Notes: a model not told the origin generated them from the sequence alone. A stretch of 64,000 nucleotides of DNA from Candidatus Omnitrophota bacterium (GCA_022710715.1 JAKLGJ010000002.1:234171-298170); one strand, 5' to 3'. Numbered from the stretch's first letter, positions 2,466-63,200 are shown. Made by a program: numbers and translations.

Positions 2466-2506
2466 GGTATCCTCCTTGTTTTGTCTGTTATTTCTGTTTA
2501 TAGTCT

Positions 2507-4135: not shown

Positions 4136-4140
4136 AGGGC

Positions 4141-4392
4141 TCCCGCAAAATAAAAATCCGGATTGCTTTTCCTGATTTCGGCAACCCGGTTAGTCAAAAA
4201 GGGAAACAATTCCATGGAGAAACAAATAATGTTTTCCCTGACCCCGTGGCTTTCCCCCCTCGAGAGGGGCTTTTCGATCAAGAATTTTACTGCGTGTTAC
4301 AAGCAAAGTATACCTTATGCGCTGCGGTTTTTCAATGCGCAAGAACAAACTTTTGTATCTGTTAACGCAGGCGTAAAGCCGGCTGTGCCGGA
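4141..4392 (-). promoter_or_regulatory. conserved ~250-nt leader, copy 1. In the mRNA sense it contains the GC palindrome hairpin CCCCTC-TCGA-GAGGGG, then GGAAAGCCACGGGG, then ...TTGACTAACCGGGTTGCCGAAATCAGGAAAAGCAATCCGGATTTTT, then the SD.
   Basis: ~80-85% identical by eye to 6161-6400. Confidence 0.45.
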
Positions 4393-4692
4393 CTATGCTT
4401 CAATCCGGCCGAGCAGGCTTTGGTAATCCTGGCGCGTTCTGATTATTACCAGATCATTGTTTAAAGCCTCTTGAATCGCATTAAGCACTATGGCAATCAA
4501 ATTGTCATTATCCATCTTTTCCCAGCGTCTGGCCAGGCCGTTGCGCCTGAATATAGAGTTGCTGCCGGCTGAAATGAAGAAAAGATGGATTCTTCCTGAT
4601 AATTCCTCTCTGGCTAGAAATAATATCGCCTGATTCCCCATGCACAGGACACCGTGAATAAACTTGAGCCGCAGAGAATCCGCCTGGTTCAC
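4393..4692 (-). CDS. hypothetical 99-aa protein (MNQADSLRLKFIHGVL...), GTG start.
   Basis: AGGAGG SD 6 nt upstream of GTG 4692. Sits between the two paralog genes. No family recognised. Confidence 0.45.
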   Translation of the reverse strand: MNQADSLRLKFIHGVLCMGNQAILFLAREELSGRIHLFFISAGSNSIFRRNGLARRWEKMDNDNLIAIVLNAIQEALNNDLVIIRTRQDYQSLLGRIEA

Positions 4693-4753
4693 TAAACACC
4701 TCCTGGTTGTGCTTTATCGCGCATAATCGTCGGTTCTCCTTTTAATCGCAAAT

Positions 4754-6154: not shown

Positions 6155-6160
6155 TTGGCC

Positions 6161-6400
6161 CCTTAAAAAGAAAAATCCGGATTGCTTTTCCTGATTTCGG
6201 CAACCCGGTCAGTCAATGAAAAGGGAAAATCAAATTGAGAAACAAAAGCAATTCCCCCGACCCCGTGGCTTTCCCCGCCGGAGCGGGGCTTTTCGATCAA
6301 GAATTCTGCTGCATTGTTCAGTCAAAGTATAGCTTACCGCGGGCGTATTTTCAAGGCAGAAAGGCCGACTTTTGTATCTGTTAACAAGCGGGTTAAATCG
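6161..6400 (-). promoter_or_regulatory. conserved leader, copy 2 (hairpin CCCCGC-CGGA-GCGGGG, GGAAAGCCACGGGG, GCGGGTTAAAT x2).
   Basis: Near-identical blocks with 4141-4390. Confidence 0.45.
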
Positions 6401-6406
6401 GGCGGG

Positions 6407-8374: not shown

Positions 8375-8410
8375 TATTTCCTCAAATTTAGATATATTTA
8401 GACAAGCTAG

Positions 8411-8439
8411 ATTATATAGCAATGCTTAAAATTTGTCAA
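8411..8439 (-). promoter_or_regulatory. consensus sigma70 promoter for the TonB_C-OEP gene (TTGACA - 17 nt - TATAAT on the minus strand).
   Basis: Plus-strand ATTATA 8411-8416 and TGTCAA 8434-8439. Confidence 0.6.
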
Positions 8440-9092: not shown

Positions 9093-9120
9093 ACCGAAAT
9101 GAGTAGCTCGGCTTTCTTGT
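9084..9120 (+). terminator. intrinsic terminator / expression platform. AGCCGAG-16 nt-CTCGGCT hairpin followed by TTCTTGTTT. Its 5' arm is the 3' arm of riboswitch P2, so the two are mutually exclusive.
   Basis: Inverted repeat 9084-9090 / 9107-9113, then a U-rich tract. Confidence 0.55.
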
Positions 9121-9138: not shown

Positions 9139-9237
9139 ATGTATGCCTGGCGAAAAACAATCTGGTTTAAAACAGTAGCCCTGACCATGGTCGGGGTATT
9201 TCTGTTTTCTGAAGTTACCTGGGCTGCCAGGTCAGAT
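9139..9237 (+). other. domain: N-terminal signal peptide / membrane anchor (MYAWRKTIWFKTVALTMVGVFLFSEVTWAARS).
   Basis: Hydrophobic core and AxA-like site. Confidence 0.6.
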
Positions 9238-21200: not shown

Positions 21201-24200
21201 TCTGGATAGCTTTAATAATCTTCCTGAAGCGGAGCGGATGAATCGTCCTCCGATCGAGATCGCCACCCTGTCCGGCCTGGACGGCAGCGTTGGCTCAACC
21301 ATCCGCAGGCTGGATATGGAAATCTCGATGACTGCGGACGCTTCCCGCAAGCAAATGCTCCAGAATGCCCGCAATACGCTGGCGACCACTTTGATTGAAT
21401 ATAACGCCAAGAATATGGCGGAAAAGAACCAGGATAAAGATTTCGATATGGAAAAAGAATTCAAGGATAAATGGACTCTCGTAACCGATCTGATGGAACA
21501 GGATGGCGCTTTCGACAATAAGGCTGCCGGCCTGGCGTCACTTATGGGTGCTTTCTACCCGGCCAGGGACATTTCTACTCCGCAGCTGTTGTTCAAACAG
21601 ATTTACGATACCGCAGAAAAAGCCGGTAAGAATGCCTACGATATGATCGCTGGCTCCGAGGTTCGCATTAACAACCTGTACCGTTCGAATAAAGAAGACG
21701 GGGACCAGTTAAAAGGATTATTCCTGCAGATCGGCAAGCAGGTGAACAATGACAACAGCTTTAAGCTTCCCGAAGAATTCGTGAATATTGGTGAGGATGG
21801 CATTGCCAGGATTAACGAAGCGCAGGAACGGGAAGGCAAAACCGCGCTGGATGCCAAGACGCTTGGTCTTGGCAGCACCGCCGCCAAAAAGGTCCTGGGC
21901 GGATTGTTCGAACATCCGCTGTATAAATTTGCGCAGCAGACCGGCGACGCGGATTTTGCCCGGCAGACCCTGAACAACCTGATGATCGCCAGCTACGGCT
22001 ATACACCGGAAATTTATTCCTTCGACACTATCCTGAATCAAGAGAAGATGGGTTGCGTTATGTATTCTTTGACCAACTATATCGGTATGAGGCTGAATGG
22101 CATCGCGGATGAAGATATCGTGATCAGCCGTCTGGAATCCAGCCGGAACTCCTACAGCCACGTTGTGGCAGGCAACATCTACGAACGCAATGCGGAGAAT
22201 CCCGATGATTATAAAGCCACCTATTATGATCCTACTCCGTTAGGAGTAAGACGCGGACTGAAAGTCGCCCTGGATTTCGGTCAGCTGGCTAAAGATTCCT
22301 CCGCCCCGGATAAATTTGCCCTCAAGGGTCTCAACACCGGCAACGCCTATTTCGATACCTATGATACCATTCGGCATATTTCCAACGGCAAAGGTCCGGA
22401 TGGTCTTTTTGCCGCGATCCTGCGCAACCGTCCGGCAATCATGGAGAATTACCATGCTCTGCAGGCCGCCACACAGCTTGATCCTTATGACATGGGCGCA
22501 AAGAGGAAGTTCGACAAGGTCAACGCGCCGGTAGAGCAATTCAACAGGGTATTGCAGGGTGCTGTGAATAAAGCGAAGGCAGAGGCTGCGGCAGCTGCCG
22601 CAGAATCAACCGAAGCGCAAGATTCCAAGTCTGGTGAGACGCCCGTACCTTCATCCTCCTCGGGGACCCCCGGCTCACCGGCTGTTAACAACGCTAACGC
22701 CGGCAACAGCAACGAAGAAAACGCCGTCGTTACCGATACCGATAGGGGCAACGCTCCTCAAGCAGTCAGCGGAGCAACTGAAGCAGATGTCACTCCTGCC
22801 GCAGAAGAAATCGGCAGCTCACATAATCGCGGTCCTCCGGCAACTGAAACCACTACTTCTTCTGAATCAGAGAATGCAGTGAAGAATGCAGAAGATGAAG
22901 AAAATGACGGAGGTAAGAAATGGTCAAATTCACTTATCAAGAACTCCAGATCAACCATCTGGTCAGCTTCAAGCAGGACGACAGCATACTCGCAGCGTGC
23001 CGAGAGAACGGCAAATCGCGCTTATTCATGGCTTTCCCGGACAGGGTTTACGTCCATACCGCAGGCAATTGGGAACTTCTCGAGGAGACCGCAAGCACGG
23101 ACATCCTTAGCCGGATCCAGCAAGCGGTCCAGCGCGGCATCACTATCTTCCATCTCGACAGCAGCGTCGCGGTCACGCAAGGAAGATTTAACAACTAGCA
23201 GGAAAGTTTCAGCAACCGGCTTCATACCTTTCATAAAGAATCTCTTCCGCGTTGGCGCGTATGTCGCCAACGTGTTGACGGTCATATATACGAAGTTCAC
23301 CGAGCTGCCCATATCCCTATCCACCGTGGCTGGTAGGAGAGAGATTACCGGGCAGCTCATTAATTTTAACGGCCTTAGACAGACTCTCGATCATGCTTCA
23401 CTTTCCGTGGCTGGTGAGGGGCATAGATTTATCGAGAACACTGCTAAGGCCGTGACTATTTTCGTGCAATCACTTCGGCTGCCTGTTGCACTGCTTTCCG
23501 TGGCTGGCAGGCACTTTGCGCAGGCAGCCGGTAGATTTGGCTCCAGATCAAGCGAAATCAAAGCTTCACCTTCCGTGGCTGGTGGGGAGCAAAAGATTAC
23601 CGCTTCTGGAGCCTCTTATTCTTGGTCCGGGTTCAGCCCTGATTATGCATCACTTTCCGTGGCTGGTGAGGGGTATAATTTTGCGGCTTCCCGGACCTCT
23701 TTGGATTATTTTGGGCTGCCTGCATCTCTATCTACCGTGGCTGGTGGAGACGTGCAGGCGGCCTTTACCTTTGGCTCCGGCTTCAATTATCAATTCGCTT
23801 CATCTTCCGTGGCTGGTGAGGGGCAGATTGATGAAGCCGGAGCTTTTGATTCCAACGCGTTCCTGGGTCGGAACGCACAACCGGCTGTCCTGACGTTCAC
23901 CCGGGCGGGTGACGCAGTACAGACGGACAGAACTGTTGTTATGGGCGGCGAAAAAAGAGTCCCTACCTCCGGGAAATCTGACCCCTCTTTGAGTAGTCGC
24001 CCTAACAACGAAATCGGAGGTGTCACATGGTCAAGGTCAACGGGAACTGGATCGAGCTCAAACACCTGGTCGTATTCGACAACGGCAGCAAAATCTTCGC
24101 AGCAGGAAGAGAATGCAGCAGCAACAGCAGAAAACAGCTTCGCTTATTCCTTATCAACGAGCATACCGGCGAGATATTCTCTCGTAACGGCAGAGCAGAA

Positions 24201-27200
24201 TCATGGGAACTGGTCAGCGATTCCGCAATCCGCGACAACATCTCCGGAACCGTCTACAGCGCTTACCAGACCCGCAACATCCCGGTCTACAGGATCCACG
24301 GCGAATTCAACGCATAATATCGGCGGCGCCTTCTTCAGCGCAGCCGCGATGGCGCCTCTAAGCATGACGGTGGTGAATCCTGAAGCAATCACTAACGCAG
24401 GCAACGTAGGGATTGTCGGATTCATCACCATGATCGGCGCGTTCACCTTATCCATACTGTTGAGCGCGCATAAGGACAGCGTCACGGTGATCAGAGCCGG
24501 ATTGATCAGCCTGGCCGCAACCGGGGTTGTTGTGGCCGTGCTGATGTTCGGCAATATCGATCTTGCCGGGATCGCGAGCTACCTGGCGGATTCAGCCGTT
24601 TCCGTCATTTCCAGCCTGCCGGCTGTTCTGGGCGTGGTCGGTTTCGCCGGTAAACCGTCATTCGACAAGGAACTTGACGGCGGCAGATCGCAGAAGCTGT
24701 TCGCGAAGATGACCATTCTCGGGCAGAAGATATTCGAGGCGTTGCAAAAACTGTGGCGTTACGGCGCAGTGGTGGCTATGTTCGGCACCCAGGAAAGCTT
24801 CGATTTGAGAGAAGTTTCCGTGATCCCCGTGGAAGCGAGACGCCGGCAGGAGAACGAATTCGGCGACGGCGGAAGACACGGGAATACCCACAGCGACCCG
24901 TTACGCGCCGTGATCAATGATCCCAGCTTGATGGGCGTAAAGATCAGGGGGAGAGAAGATGATTACGCGAGGATCTTTGCTCTGAAAATCGACATGGCGC
25001 TGGATGCTTTGAAGAAAAACATCGCGCCCCGTACCGCGCTGGTGATCGGCCCCGGTTCTACTGTGGTGGAGCCGCAGACGCTGGCAGCCAGATTCCCGTC
25101 GCTGGCAGATATTTACATGGTAGAGCGTGCGCCTATGAATCTGTCGCTTCTGGGTAAGCAGTATCTCGAGGCATTCGGCGAGTCCACCGCGCGGATACAT
25201 CTTATATACGGAGATGTCCGTTCCTTGCCTTTCGCGGATGACTCGATCGACCTGGCAGTCGGATTCAAGGTTCTGGTCGGCGAAATTTTCAGGGAGGAAG
25301 ACGACCTGCGCTCCGCCTGGAAAGAAACGGAACGGGTTTTGAGCAGCGAGGGGACCGGCATTGTCTATCAGACCCGCTTCCCGGATTTCGAACAGAGAGC
25401 AACGTTCAAATATTTGCAGCTCACGCTTTCTTTAGGACCGGAGCAAGCGAGCTTTAAGCAGCGTATTGCTTACCGCGCGCAGCTGGATGCGCCTGAACTC
25501 AACAGCTGGGCCGGCGACCATATCGGCGATATCGTGGTCTGGACCAAGGCAGAGGACGGCGGCAGAAAACTGACCGACGATGAAGCGATCGCTATTGTCA
25601 GGCAAGCGTACGCCTCCAGAGGGATTTATTTCGAAAAATTAAGCGGCAATGACGCGCAGGAGATTCTCGCGGCAGCGGTTAAGCAGGCGCAGGCAAGAGC
25701 CGACACTATGGCGAATCCGCAGGAGCAGAGCGAATCGCTGCCGGGGCTGTACCGCCGGGCGAATCAGGCTTTGCTGGTCCTGGTGCCGCTCGGATTGATC
25801 GGCCTGGGCGGGGTGATGGCGAAGGATCAACTGCATTTCGCCGAAGAGGGCGATATCGCCAAAGATATCGTCAAAGCTATTTACGCCGTCAGCGCGATCA
25901 ACGACCAGATCAACGAATTCAATCCGCTCATCGCTTCTGCGGCAGTCACCGGTCATCACATCGAATTGGGGAAAAATCCCCGCTGGGAATCATATTCCTG
26001 GGATCTGGATCAGACCACTGATGTCCGGACCCGAGAAGAAATAGTGGTCAAGCTGGATAATAACCAGGCAGGCAATAAAATCGTGGTCCAGTTATATGAC
26101 ATCAACACCCTGGATGACGAAAGCCGGGGTCGTTCCAGCGCGATTGTATTGAACGAGACCGGGGTCCAGGAAGTCCGCGTGCCCATCGACAGTATCATGG
26201 GAGCCAATCGAACCATTATCCGCAGGATCGGCGTGCATGTGGGCCGCGAAGTCTGGGGTCAGGATAACAATCCTGCGACTGCCAGGATCACCGTGCTGGA
26301 CATTGATCTCGCCGGAGAGCGGCCGCTGCCCGGAACCGGCGCGCCTTCAGTCATCCCCGGGTTCGGGCTCTGGGAAGTGTTCGGCGCTTTGATTGCCGCA
26401 ACCGGCATCATTCATTTACGCAAAATTATCTTCACCAGCCCGCAGGAAGATATCGTCAGAACAACCTTAACTGAAGGAGCTGTAGATATCCGCGGGCCTC
26501 CGTCTTCCGACACCGAAACCGATCCGGATGGCGGTAAAGTCACCGCGCGTGACGTCGCAGCCAATGCCGTTATCTTCGGACTCGGGGCTGGAATAATTTC
26601 ACTGATCGTGTCTTTCTTCGGATTGCCTCTGATCGCAGGTTCAGGCGTAGTCGTCTTAGCCACTCTGGCCATAATCGCCGTGGCCTTCGGCGCTTACTGG
26701 TTATTCACCACCAGACTGAATTCCGAGACCACCCAGACCTTTAACCAGGCGTTGAATAAGGCCCTGGAAGCCAACGAAAAATATCAGAAGCTGGATTCGA
26801 AAGAACAATCCAGGATCCGCACTCTGGTCAGAAGAGCCAAAAACGCGCTCTTCATCAAAGATCAGCAGCTGGCTTTCTCCCCGGCAGCCAAATTTCTGTC
26901 CAATCGCGATATCAAAACCGGACGCCTCGCCGGTTACGCTGTTTCCGCAATCGATGCCGTGTTCCAGGTCGTATTCATGCTGGTGCTGTATACCTTCCTG
27001 CTCAAGCATTACCTGGTGCCTTCGGCCCAGGCGATCAACGCGTTTTCCTCCATGATTCCCGAGGATACGCTTGACGCCATGGTCAAAGATGCCATTCGCG
27101 ACCTCAAGGAAAGCCAGCAGCTTTCCCCGGCTATGCAGAAAGCGGTCACCGCCAAAGACATCCTCACCTTAAAAGTACTCTTCGATTACATGGATGAACA

Positions 27201-48200: not shown

Positions 48201-51200
48201 GGGCGCCGCCGGACTGGGTAGAAACTTCGGTCTCAATCCCGAATGGGCGTTTGTGTATGCGCAGTCCCAGGAGCTGGAGGATTTCAGCGATCTGGATACG
48301 ATCAATGCGGTGATGCGTCATATGGGATTCGTTGCGGACAGCAATCACGTGGCGCGCGAGCAGATGCGCAACCCCAATCTGGATCGGTTGATCGCGCTTT
48401 CCAGCGCGGAGTTTTCATGTCTGCTGGGCTATGCTTACTGGTTCAGTCCTCTGTCCGCTTTCGCGCAGGAAAGCCCGGCGTATACGTTCGACGCAGACGG
48501 CGGGGCATCGTTCATCCTTTCGTTCGACGAGCCCGGCGCGCGGGATGTGGCTCTGGTCGGCGGCAAAGGCGCAAGTCTCTCCGAACTGGCCACCATTCCC
48601 GGAACCAGGGTGCCGGAAGGATTCGATCTGACGGTGAAAGCTTACGACCGTTTCATTCACCGCAACAATATTTCTCCGCTCATAGCGCGACTGGATATTC
48701 TTTCCGAACGGTGGATTGCGGCTTCGCTCAACGGCGATGTCCAGCTGGCGGAAGAGCTGGAGAAAGAAGTCTTCGCGCAATCGCTGGTAATAAGGGAAGC
48801 GATGCTTGCCGGGGTCATTCCCGCAGACGTGCGCAGGGAATTGGAAGAGGCGTATGTCCGGATGGGCGAAGGTTCGGTGGCCATCCGCAGCTCCGCTACC
48901 GCCGAAGACCTGCCCAACGCTTCTTTCGCCGGCAGACAGGAGACGTTCCTGAATATCAGAGGCAAAGACAACGTGGTGGAAAAAGCCAGAGAATGCATGG
49001 CCTCGCTGTTCGGCGACCGCGCCGTGTATTACCGCAATAACGATTTGAGCCTGGAGGCGATCAAAGAAGCGCGCAAGGCCGGAAAGCCTCTGGATGATGC
49101 TCTGATGGAATCCGGAATTTTGCGCCACAGTTCGGTCAAGCTGGCAGTGGTGGTTCTGCGCATGATCTATCCGTATGGCGCCGGCGTCGGGTTCAATGTG
49201 GATGTCCGTAACGGCGAGGAGGCTATTCTTATCGAAGGCAATTACGGGCTGGGAGAATCGGTGGTCAAAGGCATAGTCGAGCCTGATCTGTGGGTGCTGG
49301 ATAAAGAGGGCGCAGAGATCATTGAAAAGAAGATGGGCACCAAGACGCTGAAGATCATTTTCAGCGATCAAGGGACCGTCGAGGTCGAAGTCCCGGCTGA
49401 AGACAGAAACAGGCTCTTCCTGGATGACGCCACAGTCAAAGCCCTTGCCGCGCAGATCCGGGTTATCGGAGAGCATTACCGGTCCGCGCACGGGTATAAG
49501 TTCATGGATATCGAGTTCGTCATCGATGCGGACGGGACGATCTATTTCGTCCAGGCCCGGCCTGAAACGGTGTGGTCGAACCAGGAACTGGTCAGCCGCG
49601 GGATTCCCGTGGAAGTCGCCCGAAAAGCGAAAATCATTTTTGAAGGCGGCACTGCCGGCTTCCCGGGCGTGGTCAGCGGCACGCTGCGCATCTGCTCGAC
49701 TCTGGAAGAAGCCAGAGAAAAAGTCAAAGCCGGCGACATCCTGGCGGCCAAGGTGACCGATCCCGAATGGAACATCGTCATGTCGAAAATAGTCGGCGTG
49801 ATGGTGGACATGGGCGGGATCACCAGCCATACCGCGATCGTCAGCCGCGAAGCAAAAATCCCGAGCCTGGTGGCTACCGGCGACGCTACAGTCATGCTTG
49901 CAGGCCTGGAAGGGCAAGTCGTTACGCTTGACGCCAATAACCGGGTGGTATATCTGGGCGGCCTGGAAATAGTCGAAGGCCCGCTGGCCGAGTTCGCCCG
50001 CGACGACATTCAGCGCCGCGAGCGGGAGATCCGGACCAACGTGGTGCACAAGGAGAACGCCGAAGGCAAATGGATCGGTAAGCCGGAATATCCGCTCTCC
50101 GGCTGGCAGCTCTATTGCTACCTGCAGGCGATCAAGCTGATAGAAAAAGAATTCGATTTCGCGTTCCCGTCATTACACGTCGATCAGGGGATCATTTATA
50201 TCAAGGAAGAGGAGATCAATACCCGGTTTAACGCGCACCTCAAGAGCCTGGGCATCGATCGGCTGGAGCAGGTGCTTGCCGACCGCAAGGAAACGCTGCG
50301 CCGGTTCCTGGAGCTGGTCGATGTGCTTACGCTCACCCCCGCACAGTTCGAAGAACTCACGCAACTGTATATCCGGCTGATCATGCATTTCCATATCCGC
50401 TGGGGATTCGGCGCCGTGGTCATGGAATCTTTGCAGAGAGAACAGGTGCAGCAGTTGCCCGCCCAGTTGCAATCGGAGATCATGCAGTATTTTCATCCGT
50501 TCGAATTCAGCGAGACCAAGAAGATGGGATGGGATTTCAATGCTCTGGCCGCCGAATCCAGGGAGTTTGCCGGGCTGTTCCAGGGTAGCGTGGAAGAAAC
50601 GATCGCGGCTTTACAGCGGCAGGCTCCTGCGCTCTGGAAAAAGATCGTCCGTCACGCCAGCCAATACAAGTACGACAGCGACGATATCCGTCTGCCGGTC
50701 CCGGTGCTTAAAGTGGTCAAGAACCTGCAGGATAGAGTGCAGTCGCCGGAAGCCGCTGCCGCGGCAACGCCTGTTGCCGAAACCAACGGCGCGGAAGCTC
50801 CGGAAGCGCTCTTAAGGGAAGTCAGAAAACACGTTCGGGATTTCGACCTGTTCGTCCGCGTGCTGCAGTTGACTCACGAGCAGGCCATGCAGAAAGAGAA
50901 CGAGCATCATTTCCAGGTGAGAAAGCAATGGATCATCAGAGAGCTTTTCCTGGATTTCGGCCGGATGCTGGCCGAGCGGGGCGTGCTGGCGCAGGCGGAA
51001 GATATCTTCGACACAAACGCCGCGGATATGCTGCGGTACGTCGAAGAATACGCGCCTGCGGGATTGGATCAGACGGACGGCGGAAAACGTCAGGAAGCGG
51101 AAGCCGTTTTCCGGAAAGCGGACCGGAGCTGGAATGCGCAAGATTTCGCGGCAGCGCAAGTCCTCTACGAAGCGGCGCGCCGGCTATACGCGGAATTGAA

Positions 51201-54200
51201 CGATCAGGACAACGTGAAGCTGTCGGCGATGAGAGCGCAGGTGGCAGGCCGGGCAGTAGAAGAGCGCCGGAGCCTGGCGGACGTGTATTCTCCGGACGGC
51301 AGCTCCATAGTCGGACAGGTGACTAAGGAACAGGTGCATTTGCGGGGCGAACCGCATGCGACTTATGGCTTGCAGGTGATCACTCCTCTGGGCCGCGCGC
51401 TGTTCCAGATCAGGGATAGGGAAAAGAACAACTTTGCCGGCGCCGCCACTTTGACTTTGTGCGGGCATACGCAACCCGGCGAGAGCGCTCTGGCCGCTTT
51501 GGCCAGGGATCTCAAGAAGAACCTCGGGCTCGATCGTTTCGATCCGGTCCGCCTGACCAAGTTCGTCCTGGTCCCCGGCCAGGAATACGACCTCTACGGC
51601 TATCTGGAGATGTACACTTTCATCGCTCTGAACGCAGAGCAGGACAACGCGCTCATCGAGCTCGCCGCAGATACAATGGCTTCCGGTCGGCGCAACGGCA
51701 ACAAGCCGCTGGATCAGGTCATGGCGGTGTATCAGCCCGGCTGGCATACGCTGTCGGTTTATATCTTCCGGGAAAACAGCCGGGAAGCGCTTGAGCGCGC
51801 GGTGCGCCGGATCAGTGCGCTGACGGGTATCGGTCATACCGACCATGTGGTCAACCGGGAATGGAAAGCTATCTATCAGTATGCGATGAGCGGCGAGGAG
51901 TTATCCCGCGTATTGAATTCGGCGAACGGCGCGCAGTTTGCCCAGCGCGACCTGGAAGAAACGATCACTGATTTTAACGCCAACCCGGAGAATTATACCG
52001 ATACGTTTGTTCCCCTGTTTACCGATCCCCGGTTAGCTGGGCAGTTCAAAGAAGGTCTGGTTGTCCTTTCCGACGGCGGAGATACGGACGCTTTGCTGCC
52101 GGAAGACGAAATGTCCGAAGCGCGAGTTGAGCTGGGCAGGGACCGGTATGATCATGACCTGTATTATTTCGCCAAAAAGGGTATGTATGGACGGATCCCG
52201 CTTATCGATTTGTTGCTCGATGAGCGGATCAACGATCTGTCATTCACCTGGGACGGCGATCTGCGGCTGGGAGACCGGCAGTTCTTCTTCGCGAACGAAG
52301 CGACGCCTATCGAGAGCTTCGCCAGGGGATATCTGTCCCGGCACTCTGCCATCGTTTCCTTCAACAATCTCGGCTTCTTGAGGGAATACGCCGCCTGGAA
52401 AAGAGGCGTGCTCTACCGGAATCCGCAATCCGTCAGCCGGCAGTATTACGGCCTGGTGCACTGGAAAGAACGGTACCGCGAAAACATGTTCGAACCGTTG
52501 ACCGGGGAGCTGATTTCGTTCGAAGGCGACCGGGTGATCCGCGAAGAGGAAGATATCAGCGACGAAGTCGATTTCGCCATCTGTCCCTGTCCGATCGTGA
52601 TCAACGGCAAGCCCGTTCCGCTTACCGCGCTGGCCGACTGGTTTACCGATCTGCGTCACGCATTCATTCTTCCCAACGTGCAGGCGCCCGAGAGCGCGGC
52701 GCAGGCAGCCGGACAACAGAGCGCTTTCCGCCAGGAAATGCTGCTGGGCAGATGGGAATTGTCCAATGATCGCCGCATGCTGGAACAGGCGTTGCTGGGT
52801 ATGCCGGTGAGCTTCGACCTCTCCGCATATCTCGAAGTCAGCGGCGCAGCGTATATCCAGTCGCAACTCCGGAAGTTTGCGTACAAACCGGCTGCCGGCA
52901 TTCCGGCCCGTCGCGGTCAGTACCGCATCGACGGCAATGAAATCTCCATCAACTTCAGGGAGAGCAGATTCCCTCATCAGGTTATCGGCCTGCAGGACCG
53001 TCAGCCGGCGTTCTATTCCTTCCTGGGCGTAAGTTCCCTGTATAAGGGGCCGACGTTCAAAGAAATGCAGAAGATACTTATTGCTGATCGCGTGAGCGAC
53101 GCATTTATCCTGGTCAACGGCCGGGACGTTTTCATCAAGCAGGGCAGCGGTCCGGTGTTCGATGCCCGGTATTTAAGCGAAAGACTGCGCATCAAGCCTT
53201 CGTATGCGGACGATATCAAGAGCCACCGCGACGAAATCATGGCTGCCATCGTGCTGGTAGACGGAGGGACGTTCGCGCAGGCGATGATAAGGAAGGCCCA
53301 GTCGATCGGGTATATTATTCTGGAAAGACTCGAGGAAATGCTCTTCGGCGCGGTGGTGATGACCATGGGTAAGGTGTCGTATGTCATGCTCAAGGGCGGG
53401 GTATGGGGAGGGTTGGATCCGCTTACGCGCGAACAGATCAAGCAGCGGCTGACCGGCACCTATGCGGTTTTCGAAGGCGAAGTCAAGCATGAGACCATTA
53501 ACGACGTCATCGAACGCTGGGGCCATACTTCGTTTACCTATACGCTCACGGCAATGGAAGAATCTGGCGAATTCGATCAGGATGATGTTGAATGGGGCAG
53601 AATGCTCGTTGCCCAGCGTGACGGAGAGGGTTTTGCCGCCTGGTTCAAGGAGATGAGAGCCCGGTATCCGCATAATGCCATTCTGCGGGAGTTCGATCTC
53701 TGGCTGCAATACAGCCTGAAAGGATCGCAGAACCTTATGCTCATCCGTACGGCTTCCCGCCGGGACGTGTTGAAGGCCTTCGGGCTGGATGTCAAACAGG
53801 CACAGTCCCTGCTCAAAGGCAGGAATCCGTTTGAGGTTGATGAGCAGGATTTCGTCAAGGCGATTGTGGTCGGCGCAACCGATGTGAGCGCGGCGCATGA
53901 AGGCAGCTTGCGCAATGCGGTGTTGAAACGTTATCAGATCCCGGGGAGCCTGGCGGACTTTGCGGCTATCGCGATCGCCAACGGCGTTGCCCGGGATAAA
54001 GTAAGCAAGCTCTTTAACGCCGTGCATTGCGCGGCTGCCGGCGAAGAGCTGGTCATCGAATTCGGCCTGATGAAGGAAACCGAGGCCGGGTACTTTGCCG
54101 ATCAGTTAGTTCGGGCTGCCCGTCAGAACGAGGATTTAGACGGCGGCGATCGTTATCCGACCAGCCAGGGAAGAGACCGTCACATCCATCTGGAAGGTTC

Positions 54201-57200
54201 GATATCGTCTCGAGCAGTCAGACAGATAGCGCAGTTGATCGAGGCGCGGGCCACGGAAGAACAAAAGGCGGATTTCTGGCAGTGGATGCTTTATCACGAG
54301 CCTTACGGCGCGAAGGTGCACAGATTTAACGATATTAATACCGTTGAACAGGCCAAAGATCTTTTGCTGTCCGGCGATATCAATAGACTGAAGGATTATA
54401 TCGAGTATTCGGAAGGCATAGCCAATCATTCCAGCCGGGGAATAAAAACAAAGTTCGACAGCTTTATGCACCGTTTTTACGGTATACGCGCCGTTCTGTT
54501 CAGAACCGGCGCTCCGAGATTTGACCCCGAGCTCCAGGCGAAGATCTGCGAGATCGCGATGAATGATGTAGCGCAAGAAGCTCGAAATCAGGGTATCGTA
54601 GAGCTTGATTTGAGGGTGAAACTGGATACGACCAATAAGTCTCTGGCGGACGAACGGTGTATGGAATTCGTGAATGCCGTGATCGCTGCGGCTGAACAGG
54701 CCGAAGCGCAGTACGGGGTTAAGATCAACCTGGTCATTCCTTTCCGCCGCGACCTGATCGCCCAGGCTCTTGATCAGGGCTATACCGCCGATACCATGGA
54801 GCAGTGGATCGAAGAACGCTGGATCGCGCCGCTCAAGACGCTGGATGCCGTAAAGCTGTCCAGATTCACCGGTATCGACCTGGTGGGCAATGAACTGGGT
54901 AATAAGCCGCAGATCGAAGCGTCCGTAGCGCATTTCGATACCATGGCGGAGAAATTGAGCGTCGTGACCGGCAATCAGATCGAAATCCACGCTCATGCCG
55001 GGGAGAATTTCGATCACGACTGGGACTGGGGCATCCGCAGCATCGAAAATCTGGTGTATGGTTTGAATCACCTCAAATATATCGTGCATGGCGCGGCGCT
55101 GGCCAATGCCGATGAAGCGCGTTTCAACAGGATCTGCTGCGTCATGAAAGAGAAGGGCGTGGAAGTGCTGATCAGCATCAGCTCGAATTTGCACACCGGC
55201 GCGCTCGAGGATATGCGTCAGCATCCCGCTCCCCGGTTGCGCGACGCCGGAGTCAAAGTCATCGCCACCACCGATGATCCCGCTTCTTCCGGCATGATCA
55301 CTCTCGCCGGAGAGGAAGCTCTCCTCCGGGAGCTTTACCGCAATGACGGCGGCAAAGATGAGCTCCTGAATGAGGAGGCTGCGCGCGGGTATATTGACAA
55401 TGGCTGGCCGTTTAATTTTAAAGAAACCCTGAAACAGGCTTATCGCCAGGAATGGGAGAAAACCATGCGCACGGCTGCCGGCGATATCGCGGCAGGAACG
55501 TTGAATAAAAACAACTGGTTCAATCCCGCCATCAACCCGAACCAGGAATTCGTCACTTTTGTCATTCATCCGGACCGGGAAACCGCCCGCACCATTCACG
55601 ACGTGACCAGAAGCCTCGAAGATCTTATGCCCGAGGTTGCGCCGTCAGAGTTGCGCAGCGCCGGCATAGATGATCTGCCTGCGATGTCCGCGTGGTATCA
55701 GGCGCCGAATACGTATCATACTACCGTCTTTGCCGTCAAAGGTTTTCTGCCCCGGAAGCAAGCCGTCGAATTGTACCGATCGGTGATGTCAAGAGAGAAT
55801 CAAATCAGCCGGGCGTTGGCGAAGATACCGTCATTTGAAGTCTTTATGGAAGGGTTGATGATGACGTCTAACGGGACCTTGTTCGCCAAAGGTATTATCA
55901 CCAGCGGTAACTTCTTCCATGTCAAGAAGCTGCTTAAGGAAATCAGCTCTGAAGCGGATCCGGTATTTGCCAGACAGCCCACGCTGCTGTTTGCGCATAT
56001 GAGCCTGGCCAGGATCGTGGGAAAACTTGATCCCGCGGCCTTCGAAGCTCTTAAGGAAGAGATCAGCCAGCGGCAATATCTTAAGATGGGTTCATTTACG
56101 GTCAGCGCGGTGCGCTTCGCACACACCAACTCATACATGGACTGGGCGGACAGCGACTACACACTATTCGACCTCAACGACGGCGGATTAGTTGAAGAGA
56201 TCACCAGCGATGACCAGAAGCTGGCAGCCGTCCTCTACCATATCGCCGGGCAGCTCTCTATCGAGAAATTCAAGGGTTTGACCCCGGACGAAACCCTGTC
56301 TATGCAGGTGGGGATCAACCGGGGTAAGGCAGGGACATCCGGCCCGATGATGCATTATCTTTCGCCCAGGGCCGGGGAAGATAAACCCAGAGAGATAATT
56401 ATCTACGTGCTGGAAGGCGCGATCGAAGCCGTGGAGCTTGACCGTGCGACTTTGCAGGAGAAGACCCAGGTGATCCAAGCCGGGGAATTAGTGCAGTTTA
56501 TCGGACCGCATACCATTCGTTTCCTGGAAGATTCTCTCTTGCTTGAAATCAAGGAAGGGCCGTATCCCGGACCCAGGAAAGACAAGGTTCTGGTATCGGT
56601 TATTCCCGACAGCAAGGTGATCGCGGAGATCGTTGACGCCACGGGCGAAGTGAATGATCTGCTGGCGGGTTTGTCGGCCGCGGTCAAAGCGCTCGATGAT
56701 AACAACGATTTCATCAAAAAGCTCAATATCGCGTTGCGCATTGTGGATAGCGAGAAATTACCGGTCGCATTTACCATTAAGGTCCAGGAAAATGTCGGTT
56801 TGCTGGGCGCGGTGGGAGAGGATAAGAAATCGGTTTTGATCGATTCGAGTATGCTGGCCAGAGGCCCCCCGCAACTCGCCGCTTTTGTCCTCCTGCTTAA
56901 TGCGTACTCCATGGCCTATCCGGAGCAACTCGAGGCCGTGAAAAGAATCGTTCTGCGCGCCCTTTTCAGAGAGCATGTCTATAATCCCGAACCCGCTCAA
57001 AGCATTCTCACCAGAATGCTGGAGCAGGCTTCGCTTCCCGCGGACTGGCTTGATTCCCTGCGCGAGTTGCAGTCGGTGATCGACATGCGTCTTCCTTCCA
57101 TCCTGAACAATCCAGCCGCATATACAAAGCTCTACGACTACCTTACCTATATGGCGGTTATTGCCTATGACCCGGCGCAGGGCCTGGGAACCAAATCCTA

Positions 57201-60200
57201 TTTCGGCGGCCTGATCAAAGCGGTATATTCGCGCGTGCGCGCTGATCGTCCCGGCGCCGCCTTTACCTATAATTATCCGGCCACGCAGGATATTAAGAAT
57301 CCGGCAACGGGAGCAGATCTTCTCGCCGCGCGGGCCACGCATCCCGCAGCCGACAAATTCTGCGAGCTCTGTAACAACGTCGCCATCAGGATCGAAGAAC
57401 TGGCTTTGATGGCGTTCATCCCGGCCGTTCATCGGATCTGGCGGTTGCGTCCCAATCAATTCCCCATTTATCGTAATCATGTGTTGCTTGTTGCTCTGGA
57501 TGACGACGGCGAGCTGGCGATAGACGGCCAGCGGATGACCGCGGAATACCTGGAAGACCTGATCTATATCAGCAAGAACTATCCGCTGCTGAAGATGTTC
57601 TTCAACGGCTACGGCGCAGGCGGGACCCAGCCGCATTTCCACGCCCAGGGATTGTTCGAGCATCAGCTGGGCTTCGAGACCCAGCCGCGTGAATTTGTCG
57701 GTACGTTCGACGGAGTGAAAGTTTCCCGCATCCGGGAGTATCCTGCGGTGGTCCTGGTCCTGGAAAGCTCAAACCGCAAAGCCCTGGCGCAAACCGCCTA
57801 CGGATTCGTCGAGTATCTTAACGCGCAATCCAATCCGCACAATATCTTCTTCATCAACGGCGCAGTCTATCTCTTCCCCAGAGAATGGGAGATCCCGCCG
57901 CAGCATTTCCCCAGAGTCCGGTTCGGCTCGCTGGAAATGGGAGGCGAGATGATCCTGTCTTTCTGGGTGGATTACCTGAATATCAGCCAGGCAATGAAAA
58001 CCATGGTGCTGCAGGTGCTGGATAAGGTCAAGAATACAGCTGCATTGAAGCAGGACCCGCAGCAGCCCACCAGAGGAACTATCGATGAGGTATTGGCTGC
58101 AGCCGGCGTTGAAGAACGCGATGAGGTTGAGCAGATTTTTGCGGACATCAAGGCCCGCGGCGTGGATATTATCAAACCGGCAACACTGGAGCCGCTGGGC
58201 GATCTGATCGATCCGAACCTCGGCCAGAACATCCTCGACGCCATCAAGTACGTTACCATGACCGAGGAGCATTACGCGCAGATGATCGCCTGGGCCGGCG
58301 AAACGTTTAACGACGGCGGATACGTGTTCGCTCTTAACGGCGAGCATGGCGCGGGCAAAAGTACGCTGGCCAAAAAGCTGGTCGAGCTTACCGGCCTGGT
58401 GAAGTTCAGCGGCGGCGCGATGATGCGCCAGTTCGCCGCGCAGCGCGGCATGAGCCTTACCGAGTATACCGATACCTACCTGCTTTTGCCGGAGAATGTG
58501 CAGGAGAATGACAAAGTCAACGCCGCTATCGACGAAACGCAGGAGAAAGCTATTCTGGACGGCGATATCATCACCGAAAGCAGCCTGGGCGTTTATTTCG
58601 CCGGCAAGCACAAAGAAACGCTGTCTGGCCGGGGGATCAAAGTGGTCCGGGTGCTGCTGGTTGCGGATTCCCGCGCGCGGGCCGAGCGTTCGGTCAACGG
58701 CATCATGAATGGGACGCGTTCAAACGACCGACTGATGACTGTGAATGAAAAAGAAACGGAATTGATCGGCAGGGATATGTTCGATCAAAAGAAATTCCTG
58801 GGCATGACTAACGGCGAATTCGATATCTTCGAAATCCTGAATTACGAGATAGTTTTGAACGTCAGCGATACAACGCTGGAAGACGTTCCTGCGATGGCGC
58901 GGGCAGTGCTTGCCTTCGCCGGTTACCGGCAGGACGGCGGTACAATGAGGATCGCTAGAGAGAATGTTTCGACAAAAATAGTTATGGCGCGGGCTCCGGG
59001 TACATCTACCGTGGCAGGTGAGGATTCGGGGTCCGCGCTTTTCCATACTGACGGCGGCGAGATTGATCATCTGGTTGGTTCTATTGAGCAGAATGTGGAT
59101 TCCGGGTTAGGAGAGATTTTATATGGTAAAAATTGGCGGAAAGCCCTGGTAGCTTTTACTGATGCGCTGAATCAAGCTCAGCGTTTGTTGCAATCTGCCG
59201 AAGAGGAGAGTTATTCCGATCTCATCAAGCAGTATTATGCGAAAAACAGGTTTTTAACCGGCCGTGCTTTTTCCGGCAATACGAAAGAAGCCGTGCGACA
59301 GTTAATTACTCTCATTCGCAAAAAACGTCTTGAGGTCCTGGGAAATCTTTTGCTTCAAGAGGCTTTAAATAATCGGTATTTCCATCGGCCTGTTTATCTG
59401 GGCAAAGACGACTTGACTCTTATTCCATACGTGCATCAATTATATACGAGGTTGAATGAAGCGGAAATCCGCGACATTATAGCCGCGGCATTGTGGAAGA
59501 TGGGCGAGGAGACGCCGGCCGGACGAGCTTTAAAACAGACGGTAATAGATGAAACTGGAACGGAAGCAATAAAAGCCAGCATTAGAGATGCCCTCGGGTT
59601 TGTTAATAGGGAAGTGGGGATTGAAGGATATGAAATGCCCGGCGTTGATTACTATACGGCGCAATTAAGCAGAATAACATTTGAGAGAGATGATCCGCTG
59701 ATGGAAAAAATGAACGAGATAACCAGGGCCTTCTTGCAGGAATATCCTCAGACTGCCACTATAATCGATATGGGTGTGTGTGACGCAAGCTCTACGCTTG
59801 GTTTGGCAATGATGCTTGAGGGGAAGAATAAAGTGGTCGGGACCGATCTTTTGCTGAATTTCTATATTCTGAGTGACGGAGAATTCAAGTATGTTTTTGA
59901 TGCGTTCGGAAATCTTATGCAGATGCGGGCCGACTATATCCGGGCGGTGAAGCTGGGCCATTGGTTAGTGAAAGGCCGGGACAGCGTTTATGATTATGTG
60001 GAGTGGATTAAGTTCTCCCGCGAGTACGAAAAAGAAATATACCTGGATAGCAGCAATAGAGTAGAGACCGAAGTGGAGTACCGGGATTATCCATTATCCC
60101 GGGGCATTCAAGATGGGGAGGAAATTGAAATTTTCTCCGGTTTCGCCCGACTTGAAAGCATAGAGCGCTTATTCAGGAAGATGTATCTGGAAATGCTGCG

Positions 60201-63200
60201 AAAAGGCCAGGATAGCTATCATTGGCAGCGCTATTCCCTTCATCAGGTGAGTTTTTTGAATCCCGCGGTTTATGTGTTTAAACCCGAGAATCTCTCTTTT
60301 AAGGCGTGGGATCTTTTTGTTCCGTATCCGGAGAAAGCCAGTCTGATACGCTGTTTCAATGTATTGCGAGCGGAGTCTTATCGTCCGTATACCGACCGGG
60401 AGATACAACAGGCGCTGAAAGTGATGGGGAATTCGCTGATCAATAACGGGATCTTGATTGTTGGGAAAGCCTGGTATTCGGCGGGCGACAGAACCCGGAG
60501 CAGCATGGAGTATGACGTGTATAGGCGTGTTGGAGATGAGCTTGTATATGATCATTCGAAAGAATTGAAGCTTGCGGATAGAGGTTTCTCCATACAGTGC
60601 GTAGAGAGGCAATGGGCGCACAACAAGGAAGCCATTGATTTGTCCCGCGAGTATGCGGATATGGCCTCGCGACGCAGGATACTATCTTCGCAAACCATGC
60701 AGGAGCTGCGATTATGGAAGGATGCGATTGCTCCTTCTCAAACCAGGATGGAATTGCTCGATGAACTGAGGGCAAGGGAAAAGGCCGGTGATGTGAATAA
60801 AGAAATCGCGATAAAGCGGACTCTTGACGCGCTGGAGAATGGTGAAATAGATCTTAGCGCATTCCCGGAATACCAGGACGGCGGGATCAAGGTTAAGTAT
60901 TACAAAGGCAACGGCGAAGGCGCGCTGGTGCACAAGATCGCCGGGGATATCCAGAGCGAAGGGTTGATCAAAAAGCTGTTTGATTCCGAGCTGAAATGGT
61001 GGGATAGCGTCAAGAAAGCGTATATCGATAACAAAGAGCGCCTGGGATGGCTGGATATCCTGACCCGGCTGGAGAAGAAAGGGACGCTGGACTATATCGC
61101 CGGCCTGATCAAAGAGGCCCGCGCCCAAGGGATCGAATATGTGGTGAATATCGGGATCGGCGGCTCGGGCAACGGCGCAGTGTCCCTTAAAGGATTGTTC
61201 AAAGGAGTTCCGGAAACGGATAACTTCTTTGTGCTCGGATCGGTCGAACCCACGGTGATCGCCAATCTGGAAAGATCATTGAGCGACGCAAGCGGAGAAG
61301 TGCGTATCGACAAGTCGCTGTTTATCATCATTTCAAAATCCTGGACCACGGTGGAGACCGACCAGCTTAAGAATCATTTCTACGGCCTGGCCAAACGTTT
61401 CTATGAAAAGGAATACCCGCAGGCCGATGCCGAAGAGATCGCCGAAAAAGCCGGCCGTCATTTCATCGTTATCTGCGATCCGGGCAAAGCCGAAAATGAA
61501 CTCCGGGAAAAACACTTCCGGGCTGTGGTCGATCACGATTTGACTACCGGCGGTCGCTTCGCATCCTATTTCGACGTGGTCGGGCTTCTGCCTGCGGCGG
61601 CCATGGGGATCATGGATGCGCTGGTAGCTTCCGGTAAAAAAGGCATGCAAGCTTGCCGGCAGCCGGAGGTATTCAAATCCACCGGCGAGATCGTTAACTA
61701 CGGCGCATTCCTGGCGGCATTCCTTTATATTAATGAGATGAAACGGCGCCACGCCACATTCATTTTGCCGGGCGCGCTCAAGGATTCCTATACCTGGCTC
61801 GGCCAGATCTTCGTGGAGTCGCTGTGCAAGAAAGACCGCTACAACGATAAACGCGGCATTTTCACCGTGCTGGCCGACGATAACCTGGATCCGGCAGCCT
61901 GGGATGCTACCGAGAATTTCTTCATCTATATCCATCTCAAAGACGACGTTTCCCGGCAGCAGGAAGCGCTCAAGCTTGGTCGCAGCGGTTTCTCCGTGCT
62001 GGAGATCGTTCTCGACAGCAAAGAGGATATCGGCGAAGTGATCGCGATGTTCAATACCGGCATCGCTTTGACCGGCTACCTGATGAACGTGAATTTCGCG
62101 GATGAACCGGGGGTCTGGGTGTCCAAGGATCTGGTGCTGAAAGTGTTCATTCCTCTTCTGGAAAAGAATTTCCGCGGTCTCAAGAGCGAGTTCCTTAAGA
62201 TGATCGTCGGGCTGGCCGAGCACAAGGAGAAGCTGGAAAGCGAGCACCTGGTGCTGGATTATTGCTATATCTTGAAGGAAAAGTATCTCAACGCCGAATT
62301 TGAAGCCATGCTCGAGCAGATCAGCCTGGCGGAAGGCAAGCATGTAGAGACTATCCGCAAGGACATGCCGTCGGTCCTGGCGGCAGTACTTCTGGTCGCA
62401 GCCCGTCACCGTCCGCTCTTCGATATGCTCATTTACGGAGACGTCGACAGCTACGCCGGAGTGATGGCTGATTTCAGTTCCCTGGTCAGAGGACAGCTCA
62501 AAGTCAATCCCGGCGCCTACGCCGAGCCGGAAGCCCAGCACTGGTTGCACCAGGGGCTGCAGGACAGCCGGTCGTTGAAACTCCTGATCATCCTGGGCGT
62601 GCTCAATTACCGTTCGAAGGATATCGCCACTCCCAGCTACAGTCTGGATTTCGGCGAGCTGACCCTGCTCCAGCGGTTGGCAAACTATCTGATCCTTTCC
62701 GGCGGGTTGCCTAAGCTGTACGAGGCTCTGGAGAATGAACCGGTGGCCCGGGAATTCTTCGACAAAGTAGCCGGTCAGGGCCTGCTGGAAGCGGCTTCTC
62801 CCCAGCTGGGGATCAACATCGATCTGAAGGAGCATAGTCCAGAAGCGCTGGCCGAACTGCAGTCGCTCTTCGAGAAATCATCGGATATCGTGGAAAAGAT
62901 GCTGCGCATTCAGCGCGGCGAGCGTATCTCCGTCGCGCAGGTCGTGGCGGAAACCGTGGAGATCCTTGCCAGACATATTGCCGATATCGCGGATAATCTT
63001 GACCTGGAGGATACGGGAAAACTGCTGGATATGCTTCAGGAAACCCGCGAACTGATTATCGCGGGAGTGGGCAGAAGCGGCATCGCAGCGCAGATCAGTA
63101 AGTTGTGGCTGAAGAAAGTGGGCATCAGGGCTGAAGTGATCGAAGCCGGCGACGACTCTGTGTCTTACGATTACGGCAGAAGCCCTGCGGACCGGTTCAT

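Follow-up and report, generated by a model that had tools for sequence, protein, structure and literature searches.

A recurrent Asp-Gly-Gly motif at the enzyme seams of a giant Omnitrophota protein and its possible role in processing

Described giants, exporters and polyproteins

The giant proteins described from Omnitrophota include classes named 'Archaeovorin' and 'multi-enzyme metabolic cluster' (West-Roberts et al. 2023, bioRxiv 10.1101/2023.11.21.568195; 2026 bioRxiv 10.64898/2026.06.07.730766). Passages of West-Roberts et al. propose that such proteins are cleaved by C39 or S8 peptidases, and passages of the two papers state that the cleavage points are unknown, a lack that according to one of them blocks further analysis; whether proteins of 30,000-150,000 residues act as a single chain or as many products is called an open question in parts of the papers describing giants. 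Here we analyzed a stretch of 64,000 nucleotides from a Candidatus Omnitrophota bacterium (GCA_022710715.1, JAKLGJ010000002.1:234171-298170), referred to as the window, which carries the beginning of one such gene and in whose product the tripeptide Asp-Gly-Gly (DGG) recurs at the seams between enzymes. The cleavage-related passages of West-Roberts et al. name no cleavage points, no text on motifs, linkers or junctions was found in the 2026 preprint, Seymour et al. contain no text with 'cleav' or 'peptidase', and no report of a junction motif in giant proteins was found in the literature searched.

The giant open reading frame (ORF) runs from position 9103 to the window end on the plus strand, 18,299 codons without interruption, and continues past the window edge; the window covers the N-terminal third of the gene, and all motif counts given below refer to the 18,299 amino acids (aa) read. 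The same ORF is 54,154 aa long on a 914-kb contig and 54,149 aa long on a 591-kb contig of another assembly, while in the NCBI metagenome-assembled genome (MAG) GCA_035453765.1, and likewise in one JGI contig, it is cut at 6,663 aa. Its neighbor gene was found on nine contigs, with four listed places coming from ENA, NCBI and JGI assemblies. The window thus holds the opening third of a genuine giant gene. Its contig is present in samples of anaerobic-digester type (e.g., JGI 3300009776 or ENA ERZ27257456), and the ~36,000 residues beyond the window edge are encoded on contig k141_570614 of ERZ27257456.

The features used to define the Omnitrophota giant class (an ORF of more than 30,000 aa, a signal peptide, an N-terminal C39 domain, transmembrane (TM) segments and tiled enzymes) were all found. 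Like the described giants, the window protein comes from an ORF of more than 50,000 aa, begins with a signal peptide and then a C39 domain, contains many TM segments, and has glycosyltransferase, methyltransferase, NUDIX and sugar-metabolism enzymes tiled along the chain. The two N-terminal features are:

9139..9228, plus strand: probable Sec-type signal peptide (MYAWRKTIWFKTVALTMVGVFLFSEVTWA, then A), judged by eye
10876..11238, plus strand: peptidase C39 domain, aa 592-712 (PF03412)

After the C39 domain come ~4,000 residues without profile matches, then TM-like clusters and a GT2/glucan-synthase-like domain; a crude hydropathy scan gave 49 TM-like segments in all, too uncertain for topology parity. 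From about aa 9,970 onward, Pfam profiles and solved structures reveal a dense array of ordinary enzymes, comprising NUDIX (twice), an S-adenosylmethionine (SAM) methyltransferase, a dCMP-type deaminase, a 2H phosphoesterase, LpxC, an ArnA-type formyltransferase, phosphoenolpyruvate (PEP) synthase, an adenosine-deaminase-like domain, a P-loop kinase, phosphoglucose isomerase and a SIS domain. The DGG seam motif and its lineage-specific equivalents do not appear in those papers.

Double-glycine C39 exporters (PCATs) resemble the window protein in two respects: a C39 peptidase domain of papain fold that has its Cys and His, and a Gly-Gly pair directly ahead of the bond proposed to be cut. Substrates of C39 carry Gly-Gly, or Gly-Ala/Ser, at P2-P1. 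Numbering the window sites for a cut after the second Gly (second Gly P1, Asp P3, next residue P1'), Gly-Gly occupies P2-P1 at 26/26 sites, and the hydrophobicity at P4, P7, P12 and P15 that marks double-glycine substrates is lacking. PCAT substrates are small peptides with one N-terminal leader, whereas the window sites are internal and repeated, have Asn or another polar residue at P4, follow no amphipathic leader helix and come with no ABC transporter module. The peptidase domains of PCATs are cytoplasmic; the window C39 domain instead follows a signal peptide, and is not the N-terminal domain of an ABC exporter.

MARTX toxins provide a functional analogy, being large exported proteins in which a built-in cysteine protease cuts the linkers between the units of an effector array. 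Their protease, a member of family C80, cuts after Leu once inositol hexakisphosphate has activated it, and the toxins, which contain RTX repeats, are smaller by a factor of about ten, whereas no C80 or RTX Pfam match was found in the window protein. In viral polyproteins, papain-like proteases cut at Gly-Gly (coronavirus PLpro at LxGG; compare the ubiquitin-type RLRGG), and the likeness here extends to an embedded clan-CA cysteine protease, repeated GG-ending sites at unit edges and a site that varies between lineages. The differences are that the window gene is a cellular bacterial gene, that its units are ordinary metabolic enzymes, and that P3 and P4 are Asp and Asn. As in a polyprotein, a short site recurs at unit boundaries and is absent inside units, and a protease domain (C39) is present in the same polypeptide. 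The parts (C39, GG sites, polyprotein logic) are familiar; their setting, a 54,000-codon cellular gene with a lineage-specific, enzyme-separating tag, is undescribed.

The DGG motif and the units between its sites

An earlier note on this DNA, made from the sequence alone, had reported at least 23 same-frame occurrences of the pattern GAYGGMGG, concentrated in the enzyme array, and this was borne out. The pattern occurs 29 times on both strands, compared to 11.4 +/- 3.4 times in dinucleotide-preserving shuffles (largest 23); 26 occurrences lie on the plus strand and 25 of them in the frame of the giant ORF, every one coding for D-G-G, with a 26th DGG tripeptide, at nt 39013, spelled with GGT. 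At the protein level, the 26 DGG compare to 5.45 in 5000 residue shuffles (largest 14; Poisson P 1.5e-10) and to 5.3 when residues were shuffled inside 300-aa blocks (largest 15), far above composition-matched expectation, and the enzyme array alone holds 21, compared to 2.75 expected (P 2e-12). DGG is the top over-represented tripeptide without Cys. Gly-Gly overall is not enriched (82 vs 94 expected), Asp precedes 26 of the 82, and every NDG in the giant ORF continues as NDGG (9/9). DGG is confined to aa 4602-5809 and 9971-17259 and absent from the remaining 8,760 residues, and therefore reflects no whole-protein bias.

The sites, all on the plus strand, are listed below together with one variant (EGG); 'module' denotes a junction module of about 45 aa, present in six copies.

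22906..22914 (+): DGG aa 4602 (EENDGG, then KKW)
24676..24684 (+): DGG aa 5192, opens module copy 1
24865..24873 (+): DGG aa 5255, closes a 63-aa module piece
25555..25563 (+): DGG aa 5485
26527..26535 (+): DGG aa 5809, then a hydrophobic TM-like segment
39013..39021 (+): DGG aa 9971 (GAC GGT GG, outside the GAYGGMGG pattern), then TM-like segments
39676..39684 (+): DGG aa 10192, where module copy 2 and the enzyme array start
40939..40947 (+): DGG aa 10613, N-terminal edge of the methyltransferase unit
41809..41817 (+): DGG aa 10903, 4 aa past the methyltransferase unit end; opens module copy 3
41962..41970 (+): DGG aa 10954 (IDGG, then MTVEDIR), N-terminal edge of the deaminase unit
42889..42897 (+): DGG aa 11263, where the deaminase unit stops and the 2H-phosphoesterase unit begins
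43639..43647 (+): DGG aa 11513, where the 2H unit stops and module copy 4 begins
44131..44139 (+): DGG aa 11677, with the LpxC core 52 aa downstream
47422..47430 (+): DGG aa 12774, opens module copy 5
47593..47601 (+): EGG aa 12831, variant seam aligning with DGG in the paralogue (aa 15693) and in L013/P0047
47992..48000 (+): DGG aa 12964, C-terminal edge of cupin-like unit 1; kept in L013/P0047
48496..48504 (+): DGG aa 13132, at the natural PEP-synthase N-terminus (2ols residue 4 = aa 13136)
51076..51084 (+): DGG aa 13992, 4 aa past the PEP-synthase unit end (the P0078 alignment stops at 13988)
52072..52080 (+): DGG aa 14324
53260..53268 (+): DGG aa 14720, opens module copy 6
54139..54147 (+): DGG aa 15013, 11 residues from the HIHLEGS motif opening the adenosine-deaminase-like unit
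55345..55353 (+): DGG aa 15415, 17 aa past the end of the A_deaminase profile match
56179..56187 (+): DGG aa 15693, N-terminal edge of cupin-like unit 2; kept in L013/P0047
58312..58320 (+): DGG aa 16404 (FNDGG, then YVFALNGEHGAGKST), directly ahead of the kinase unit's first strand and P-loop
58933..58941 (+): DGG aa 16611
59050..59058 (+): DGG aa 16650
60877..60885 (+): DGG aa 17259; by extrapolation, the phosphoglucose-isomerase unit has its natural N-terminus ~6 aa further on

Examples of the residues right after DGG are MTVEDIR, ASFILSFDEPGAR and YVFALNGEHGAGK. The coordinates in the earlier note were right to ~7 nt and all the sites it listed are real, with those at 24676 and 39013 omitted; its spacing of 500-1,300 nt holds for 15/25 intervals, while K, R or E follows NDGG at 6 sites only, where about 8 had been counted.

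To place these sites relative to enzymes, the extents of 15 array units were taken solely from alignments with Pfam profiles, with solved structures and with homologues in databases. The interiors of these units contain none of the 21 array sites, with 8.6 expected (a result unequalled in 20,000 randomisations), and 11 of the 30 unit ends have a DGG within 15 aa, compared to 2.2 expected and a largest random value of 9. The coincidence of sites with predicted boundaries is therefore supported, as is the proposal that IDGG opens the deaminase, since DGG aa 10954 lies five residues before the dCMP-deaminase profile start. The A_deaminase match stops at profile position 282 of 330, and so DGG aa 15415 may sit within the last helices of that fold. 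The units and modules referred to below are:

40948..41808 (+): methyltransferase unit, aa 10616-10902, DGG on both sides
41971..42888 (+): unit containing the dCMP deaminase, aa 10957-11262, DGG on both sides
42898..43638 (+): 2H phosphoesterase unit, aa 11266-11512, DGG on both sides
44293..46377 (+): LpxC (aa 11731-12015) and ArnA-type formyltransferase (aa 12124-12425)
48505..51075 (+): complete PEP synthase unit with three domains, aa 13135-13991, DGG on both sides
24676..24819 (+): junction module copy 1 (~45 aa; DGG, amphipathic helix, FGAVV-type strand)
39676-39819, 41809-41952, 43639-43782, 47422-47565 and 53260-53403 (+): junction module copies 2-6

What DGG separates are whole enzymes, not single structural domains as the one-domain spacing of the earlier note implied: there is no DGG between the three domains of PEP synthase (857 aa), nor between the N and C domains of the formyltransferase. 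When the array segment aa 10560-11729 was searched against 1.8 billion representative proteins, the aligned ranges of its matches coincided with the DGG-delimited segments. The methyltransferase unit is co-linear throughout with free-standing proteins of 282-298 aa, whose ends fall a few residues from DGG 10613 and 10903, and one such homologue (L008) is a stop-to-stop ORF of 293 codons on its own contig. A further homologue search, in an index apparently without giant proteins, gave no match at E 1e-10 for the array segment and none for the C39 region, and its unit alignment returned two free-standing methyltransferases only.

The linker of 109 aa between LpxC and the formyltransferase, both lipid-A enzymes, has no DGG or any GG, and under a cleavage model this pair would remain fused. 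Two cupin-like units, aa 12826-12966 (47566-48012) and aa 15687-15831 (56152-56607), are internal paralogues, matching one unit of the related protein P0047 at 58% and 47% identity; unit 1 opens with EGG and ends with DGG, and unit 2 opens with DGG and ends without it.

The motif extends beyond the tripeptide. Asn is at P4 in 9/26 sites (P 1e-6), Asp or Glu at P6 in 12/26 (P 2e-5) and Lys or Arg at P1' in 11/26 (P 2e-5), and these trends persist at the 20 sites outside the repeated module, which are themselves still significantly enriched (P 1e-6); the extended seam motif is [D/E]-x-N-D-G-G, then K/R. The module itself, for which no Pfam match was found, consists in its six copies of DGG, an amphipathic helix (e.g., RLIAAWRTL) and FGAVV-x-T-x-G. 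Two copies are closed 51-63 residues on by DGG (aa 5255 and 10954), one by EGG aa 12831 and another by KGG/WGG aa 14764/14768, and since the second xGG comes 44-63 aa later, these four copies look like short spacer pieces.

The DGG signal resides in the peptide, not in the DNA. The spelling GACGGCGG is used at 19/26 sites, and GAC-GGC exceeds bulk codon usage there (P 1e-6 and 2e-4), but this is a general codon-context effect of the gene: Asp before any Gly is GAC in 39/51 cases (76%, vs 37% overall in 9103-64000), and the first Gly of other xGG is GGC in 44/56 (79%, vs 49% overall), with GGA rare. The codon proportions at the DGG sites match this gene-wide Asp-Gly and Gly-Gly context, and the third codon varies synonymously between GGC, GGA, GGG and GGT. 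As a side observation, the same codon-pair context, with GGA rare as the first Gly of GG, would avoid internal GGAGG-like strings.

Seam motifs in related large proteins

A related giant (P0047; contig JAQUPT010000018.1, MAG GCA_028716445.1, locus L013 of 13,971 bp) is encoded by one open frame of 4,656 codons and has an order like the window's, with a glucan-synthase-like domain followed by an enzyme array. It contains 10 GG and 3 DGG in 4,656 aa, and all 3 DGG are in the array, at seams homologous to those of the window, with one ahead of the deaminase unit and two flanking the cupin-like unit. Its units are 32-58% identical to the window's, and the linkers are otherwise unconserved. A fragment of another related giant (L015; DAOTDK010000033.1, MAG GCA_035453615.1), with an accession prefix resembling that of the window MAG, has one DGG at the seam after the deaminase unit and one inside a deaminase fold (MIVHKDGGVVATG).

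Other proteins carry other motifs. P0024 (L014:88-11163), the C-terminal 3,691 aa of a giant, has SSP[VIAM] 12 times compared to 0.22 expected, bracketing the deaminase unit as DGG does in the window; the Ser codons at SSP come from both the AGY and TCN families. P0001 (L005:1686-15401), a complete protein of 4,562 aa, has [GAS]AR[LM] 15 times (0.65 expected), once at the natural N-terminus of a mannose-6-phosphate isomerase unit. P0006 (L018:1-4704) has [AT]E[VL]R 6 times (0.22 expected), with SAR-(A/T)-EVR on both sides of a methyltransferase unit. Because Ser and Arg use both of their codon families, these motifs, too, are signals at the level of the peptide. In none of P0024, P0001 and P0006 was a protease domain detected.

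A seam motif common to all related large proteins is ruled out, as none was found in P0004, P0005, P0029, P0039, P0052, P0078, P0093 or the first 4,473 aa of the L007 giant; several of the proteins lacking one are 1,000-2,200 aa long. Neither the complete P0001 nor these first 4,473 aa of L007 show a C39 match or DGG punctuation, and these two C39-less cases, the ones checked, lend weak but consistent support to a link between C39 and GG. The L007 giant ORF (L007:7463-20881, at least 4,473 aa) lies on a 726-kb metagenome contig and encodes a signal anchor and an early enzyme array with methyltransferase, APH kinase, DUF218, metallophosphatase, PEP-utilising and HPr domains.

Cleavage, its candidate enzyme and rival explanations

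A motif that is short, sits at unit seams and not in unit interiors, is absent from the linkers within enzymes, is conserved where the rest of the linker is not, and is replaced by chemically unrelated motifs elsewhere has the properties of a site recognized by a sequence-specific factor, most obviously a processing protease, and we consider it very probable that DGG is a selected junction signal. Its reading as peptide-level punctuation that separates gene-sized enzyme units and likely serves as a processing site is the one we prefer, at about even confidence, and that cleavage takes place at DGG is in our judgment an evenly balanced proposition. Under this processing reading, an endoproteolytic cut would fall after the second Gly, and the giant product would act as a bacterial polyprotein, releasing near-native enzymes; a short ...DGG tail would stay on each of them, and the enzyme after it would begin 0-15 residues ahead of its natural N-terminus. 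A presumed former initiator Met directly follows one site (DGG, then M, aa 10954). The polyprotein idea fits all the findings made here as well as the published proposal.

The leading candidate for the protease is the C39 (papain-fold) domain of the same protein, as this is the sole family found here that is known to cleave after Gly-Gly; that it is the cutting enzyme is nonetheless doubtful. The C39 call of the earlier note held up: PF03412 matches with E 2.8e-8 and 34.1 bits (cut-off 22) over profile positions 8-130 of 133, and candidate catalytic residues, read by eye, are Cys597 (PPCGAVAL), His671 (GHYVTV) and Asp687. The region also has a weak secondary match to the peptidase part of the NHLP bacteriocin exporter TIGR03796, and a PDB phmmer search with it gave noise only, with no C39 structure matched. 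No other protease domain was found by Pfam in the 18,299 aa, nor in five neighboring genes, and no ABC transporter transmembrane or ATPase domain scored over threshold in the 18,299 aa. A YGG at 11278-11286 (aa 726-728, RQTYGG, then YDVLG) lies 14 residues past the C39 domain; to call it a self-cleavage site would be pure speculation.

Several points weigh against the processing reading, beginning with the sample itself: the evidence comes from the first third of the gene, and 6 of the 26 DGG sites share one repeated 45-aa module and hence are not independent. DGG is missing at the LpxC-to-formyltransferase seam, at the end of cupin-like unit 2 and at the seam between phosphoglucose isomerase and the SIS domain, and several other multi-enzyme proteins have no seam motif at all. 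Because one DGG of L015 lies within a deaminase fold, DGG can also be an ordinary structural turn. Canonical double-glycine leaders require hydrophobic residues at P4, P7 and P12 (P15) and an amphipathic leader helix. The polar P4 and the absence of an amphipathic hydrophobic leader before GG are unlike known C39 substrates, a caveat that the earlier note had raised with good reason: P4 is hydrophobic at 6/26 sites, with no hydrophobic enrichment from P4 to P9. Finally, as a signal peptide precedes it, the C39 region is probably exported, long before the array is translated, while array enzymes needing ATP, SAM, PEP and UDP-sugars point to the cytoplasm; a Sec-type signal peptide on one side and cofactor-dependent enzymes on the other suggest that C39 and array are probably in different compartments. 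Possibly the array is exported too, e.g., into prey; equally, a different protease may recognize DGG, or the sites may be uncut.

The last of these options, DGG as an uncut structural seam (a hinge or helix cap) in a giant that works as a tethered multi-enzyme chain, we consider unlikely. It would agree with the flexibility of Gly-Gly, with helices predicted after many sites in a partly low-confidence model, and with a weak tendency of the flanks to exceed the average in hydrophilicity (z about -1.9). An AlphaFold2 model of aa 10880-11540, built without alignment, places four DGG between predicted helices, but its mean pLDDT of 36 is uninformative and it was given no weight. A hinge, however, needs no invariant Asp, P4 Asn or P1' Lys/Arg, DGG marks the ends of whole enzymes and not the linkers within PEP synthase and the formyltransferase, and AARLA and SSPV, the chemically unrelated motifs found at the same seams elsewhere, share no hinge-like property, in keeping with a factor that reads the sequence.

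Cutting of DGG by another protease, whether cytoplasmic, trans-acting or encoded in the further 36,000 residues, also appears improbable to us. It would account for the compartment mismatch between an exported C39 and a cofactor-dependent array, for the non-canonical residues at P4-P15, and for seam motifs of other lineages whose proteins have no recognizable protease domain. Yet C39 is the sole protease domain in the window protein, with none in the five neighboring genes, and the match between GG and C39 specificity would then be a coincidence.

Much less probable is that DGG is a scar of gene fusion, either a translated intergenic remnant (e.g., a Shine-Dalgarno GGAGG) or a recombination junction. 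The units do equal former free-standing genes, DGG is close to former starts, with Met directly after DGG aa 10954, and in P0002 both flanks of the methyltransferase unit share QARP...QAPPI, with the look of a duplicated linker. On the other hand, a single reading frame is kept throughout, the motif extends to Asp and Asn, its core is GGCGG and not GGAGG at 22/26 sites, and synonymous changes at the third codon leave the peptide intact. The motif is also retained in a relative only 32-58% identical amid unconserved linkers, and it closely follows unit C-termini as well, which a Shine-Dalgarno remnant would not.

The suggestion in the earlier note of a nucleic-acid role, with GACGGCGG as an internal ribosome-binding or pause site or a DNA motif, fared poorly and is in our view highly improbable. 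It draws on the strong strand and frame bias of the motif and on its uniform spelling, and the latter is explained by the gene-wide preference for GAC before Gly and GGC first in GG, which rules out a nucleotide-level signal. The GGCGG core has poor Shine-Dalgarno likeness, mismatching the canonical anti-Shine-Dalgarno sequence, and an in-frame start codon at suitable distance follows 2/26 sites compared to a background of 19%, and so internal initiation is ruled out. There are moreover no sites in 8,760 other codons of the gene, and the analogous SSP motif of P0024 mixes its Ser codon families. The embedded frame-0 gene proposed at 22906 proved to be an ORF of 92 codons that occupies frame 2 of the giant ORF and is unsupported as a gene. 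That the enrichment is a chance or compositional artefact, for which nothing speaks beyond the six sites sharing a module, has a negligible probability and is refuted by shuffle maxima of 14-15 compared to 26 observed, by the significance of the 20 sites outside the module and by a junction placement unmatched in 20,000 randomisations.

Sorting of the GlyGly-CTERM/rhombosortase type was also rejected, as DGG precedes a TM segment at two sites only (aa 5809 and 9971) and does not do so in general. Nothing was found to support either spontaneous Asn/Asp-Gly chemistry or 2A-like peptide-bond skipping.

The DGG tags offer the first definite candidates for the points at which a giant of this kind may be cut into working pieces; should the processing reading hold, its logic would mirror that of viral polyproteins in a cellular genome. 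The seam motif gives a rule for splitting giants into units for structure prediction and annotation, and lineage-specific motifs, if upheld, point to co-evolving pairs of protease and site in cellular polyproteins. More generally, and only tentatively, giant multi-enzyme ORFs might be stop-codon-free operons, true polyproteins with lineage-specific cleavage tags and a cognate protease (here C39).

Some further features of the window were recorded. Between the signal peptide and the C39 domain lies a Ser-rich low-complexity stretch (SSGSSSLGSSS..., 9380-9700). G+C is 0.42-0.44 at 34000-40000 and 0.50-0.58 elsewhere, the dip corresponding to the TM-rich and glucan-synthase-like part of the ORF. 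An antisense ORF of 1,011 codons (29353-32388, minus strand) is contained in the giant gene, with its codons in register with those of the sense frame; TTA, CTA and TCA make up 1 in 1,012 sense codons beneath it compared to 15 per 1000 gene-wide, and owing to this scarcity it is a shadow ORF, though the local codon usage is unusual. Upstream, divergent neighbors occupy 531-8422 on the minus strand, two proteins without matches among them. They include a fusion of TonB_C with a TolC-like outer-membrane-efflux protein (6407-8422, minus strand) and a protein with MgtE_N/FliG_M-like repeats (531-2510, minus strand), and another MgtE_N-like repeat protein, of at least 2,320 aa, is encoded outside the window at locus L001.

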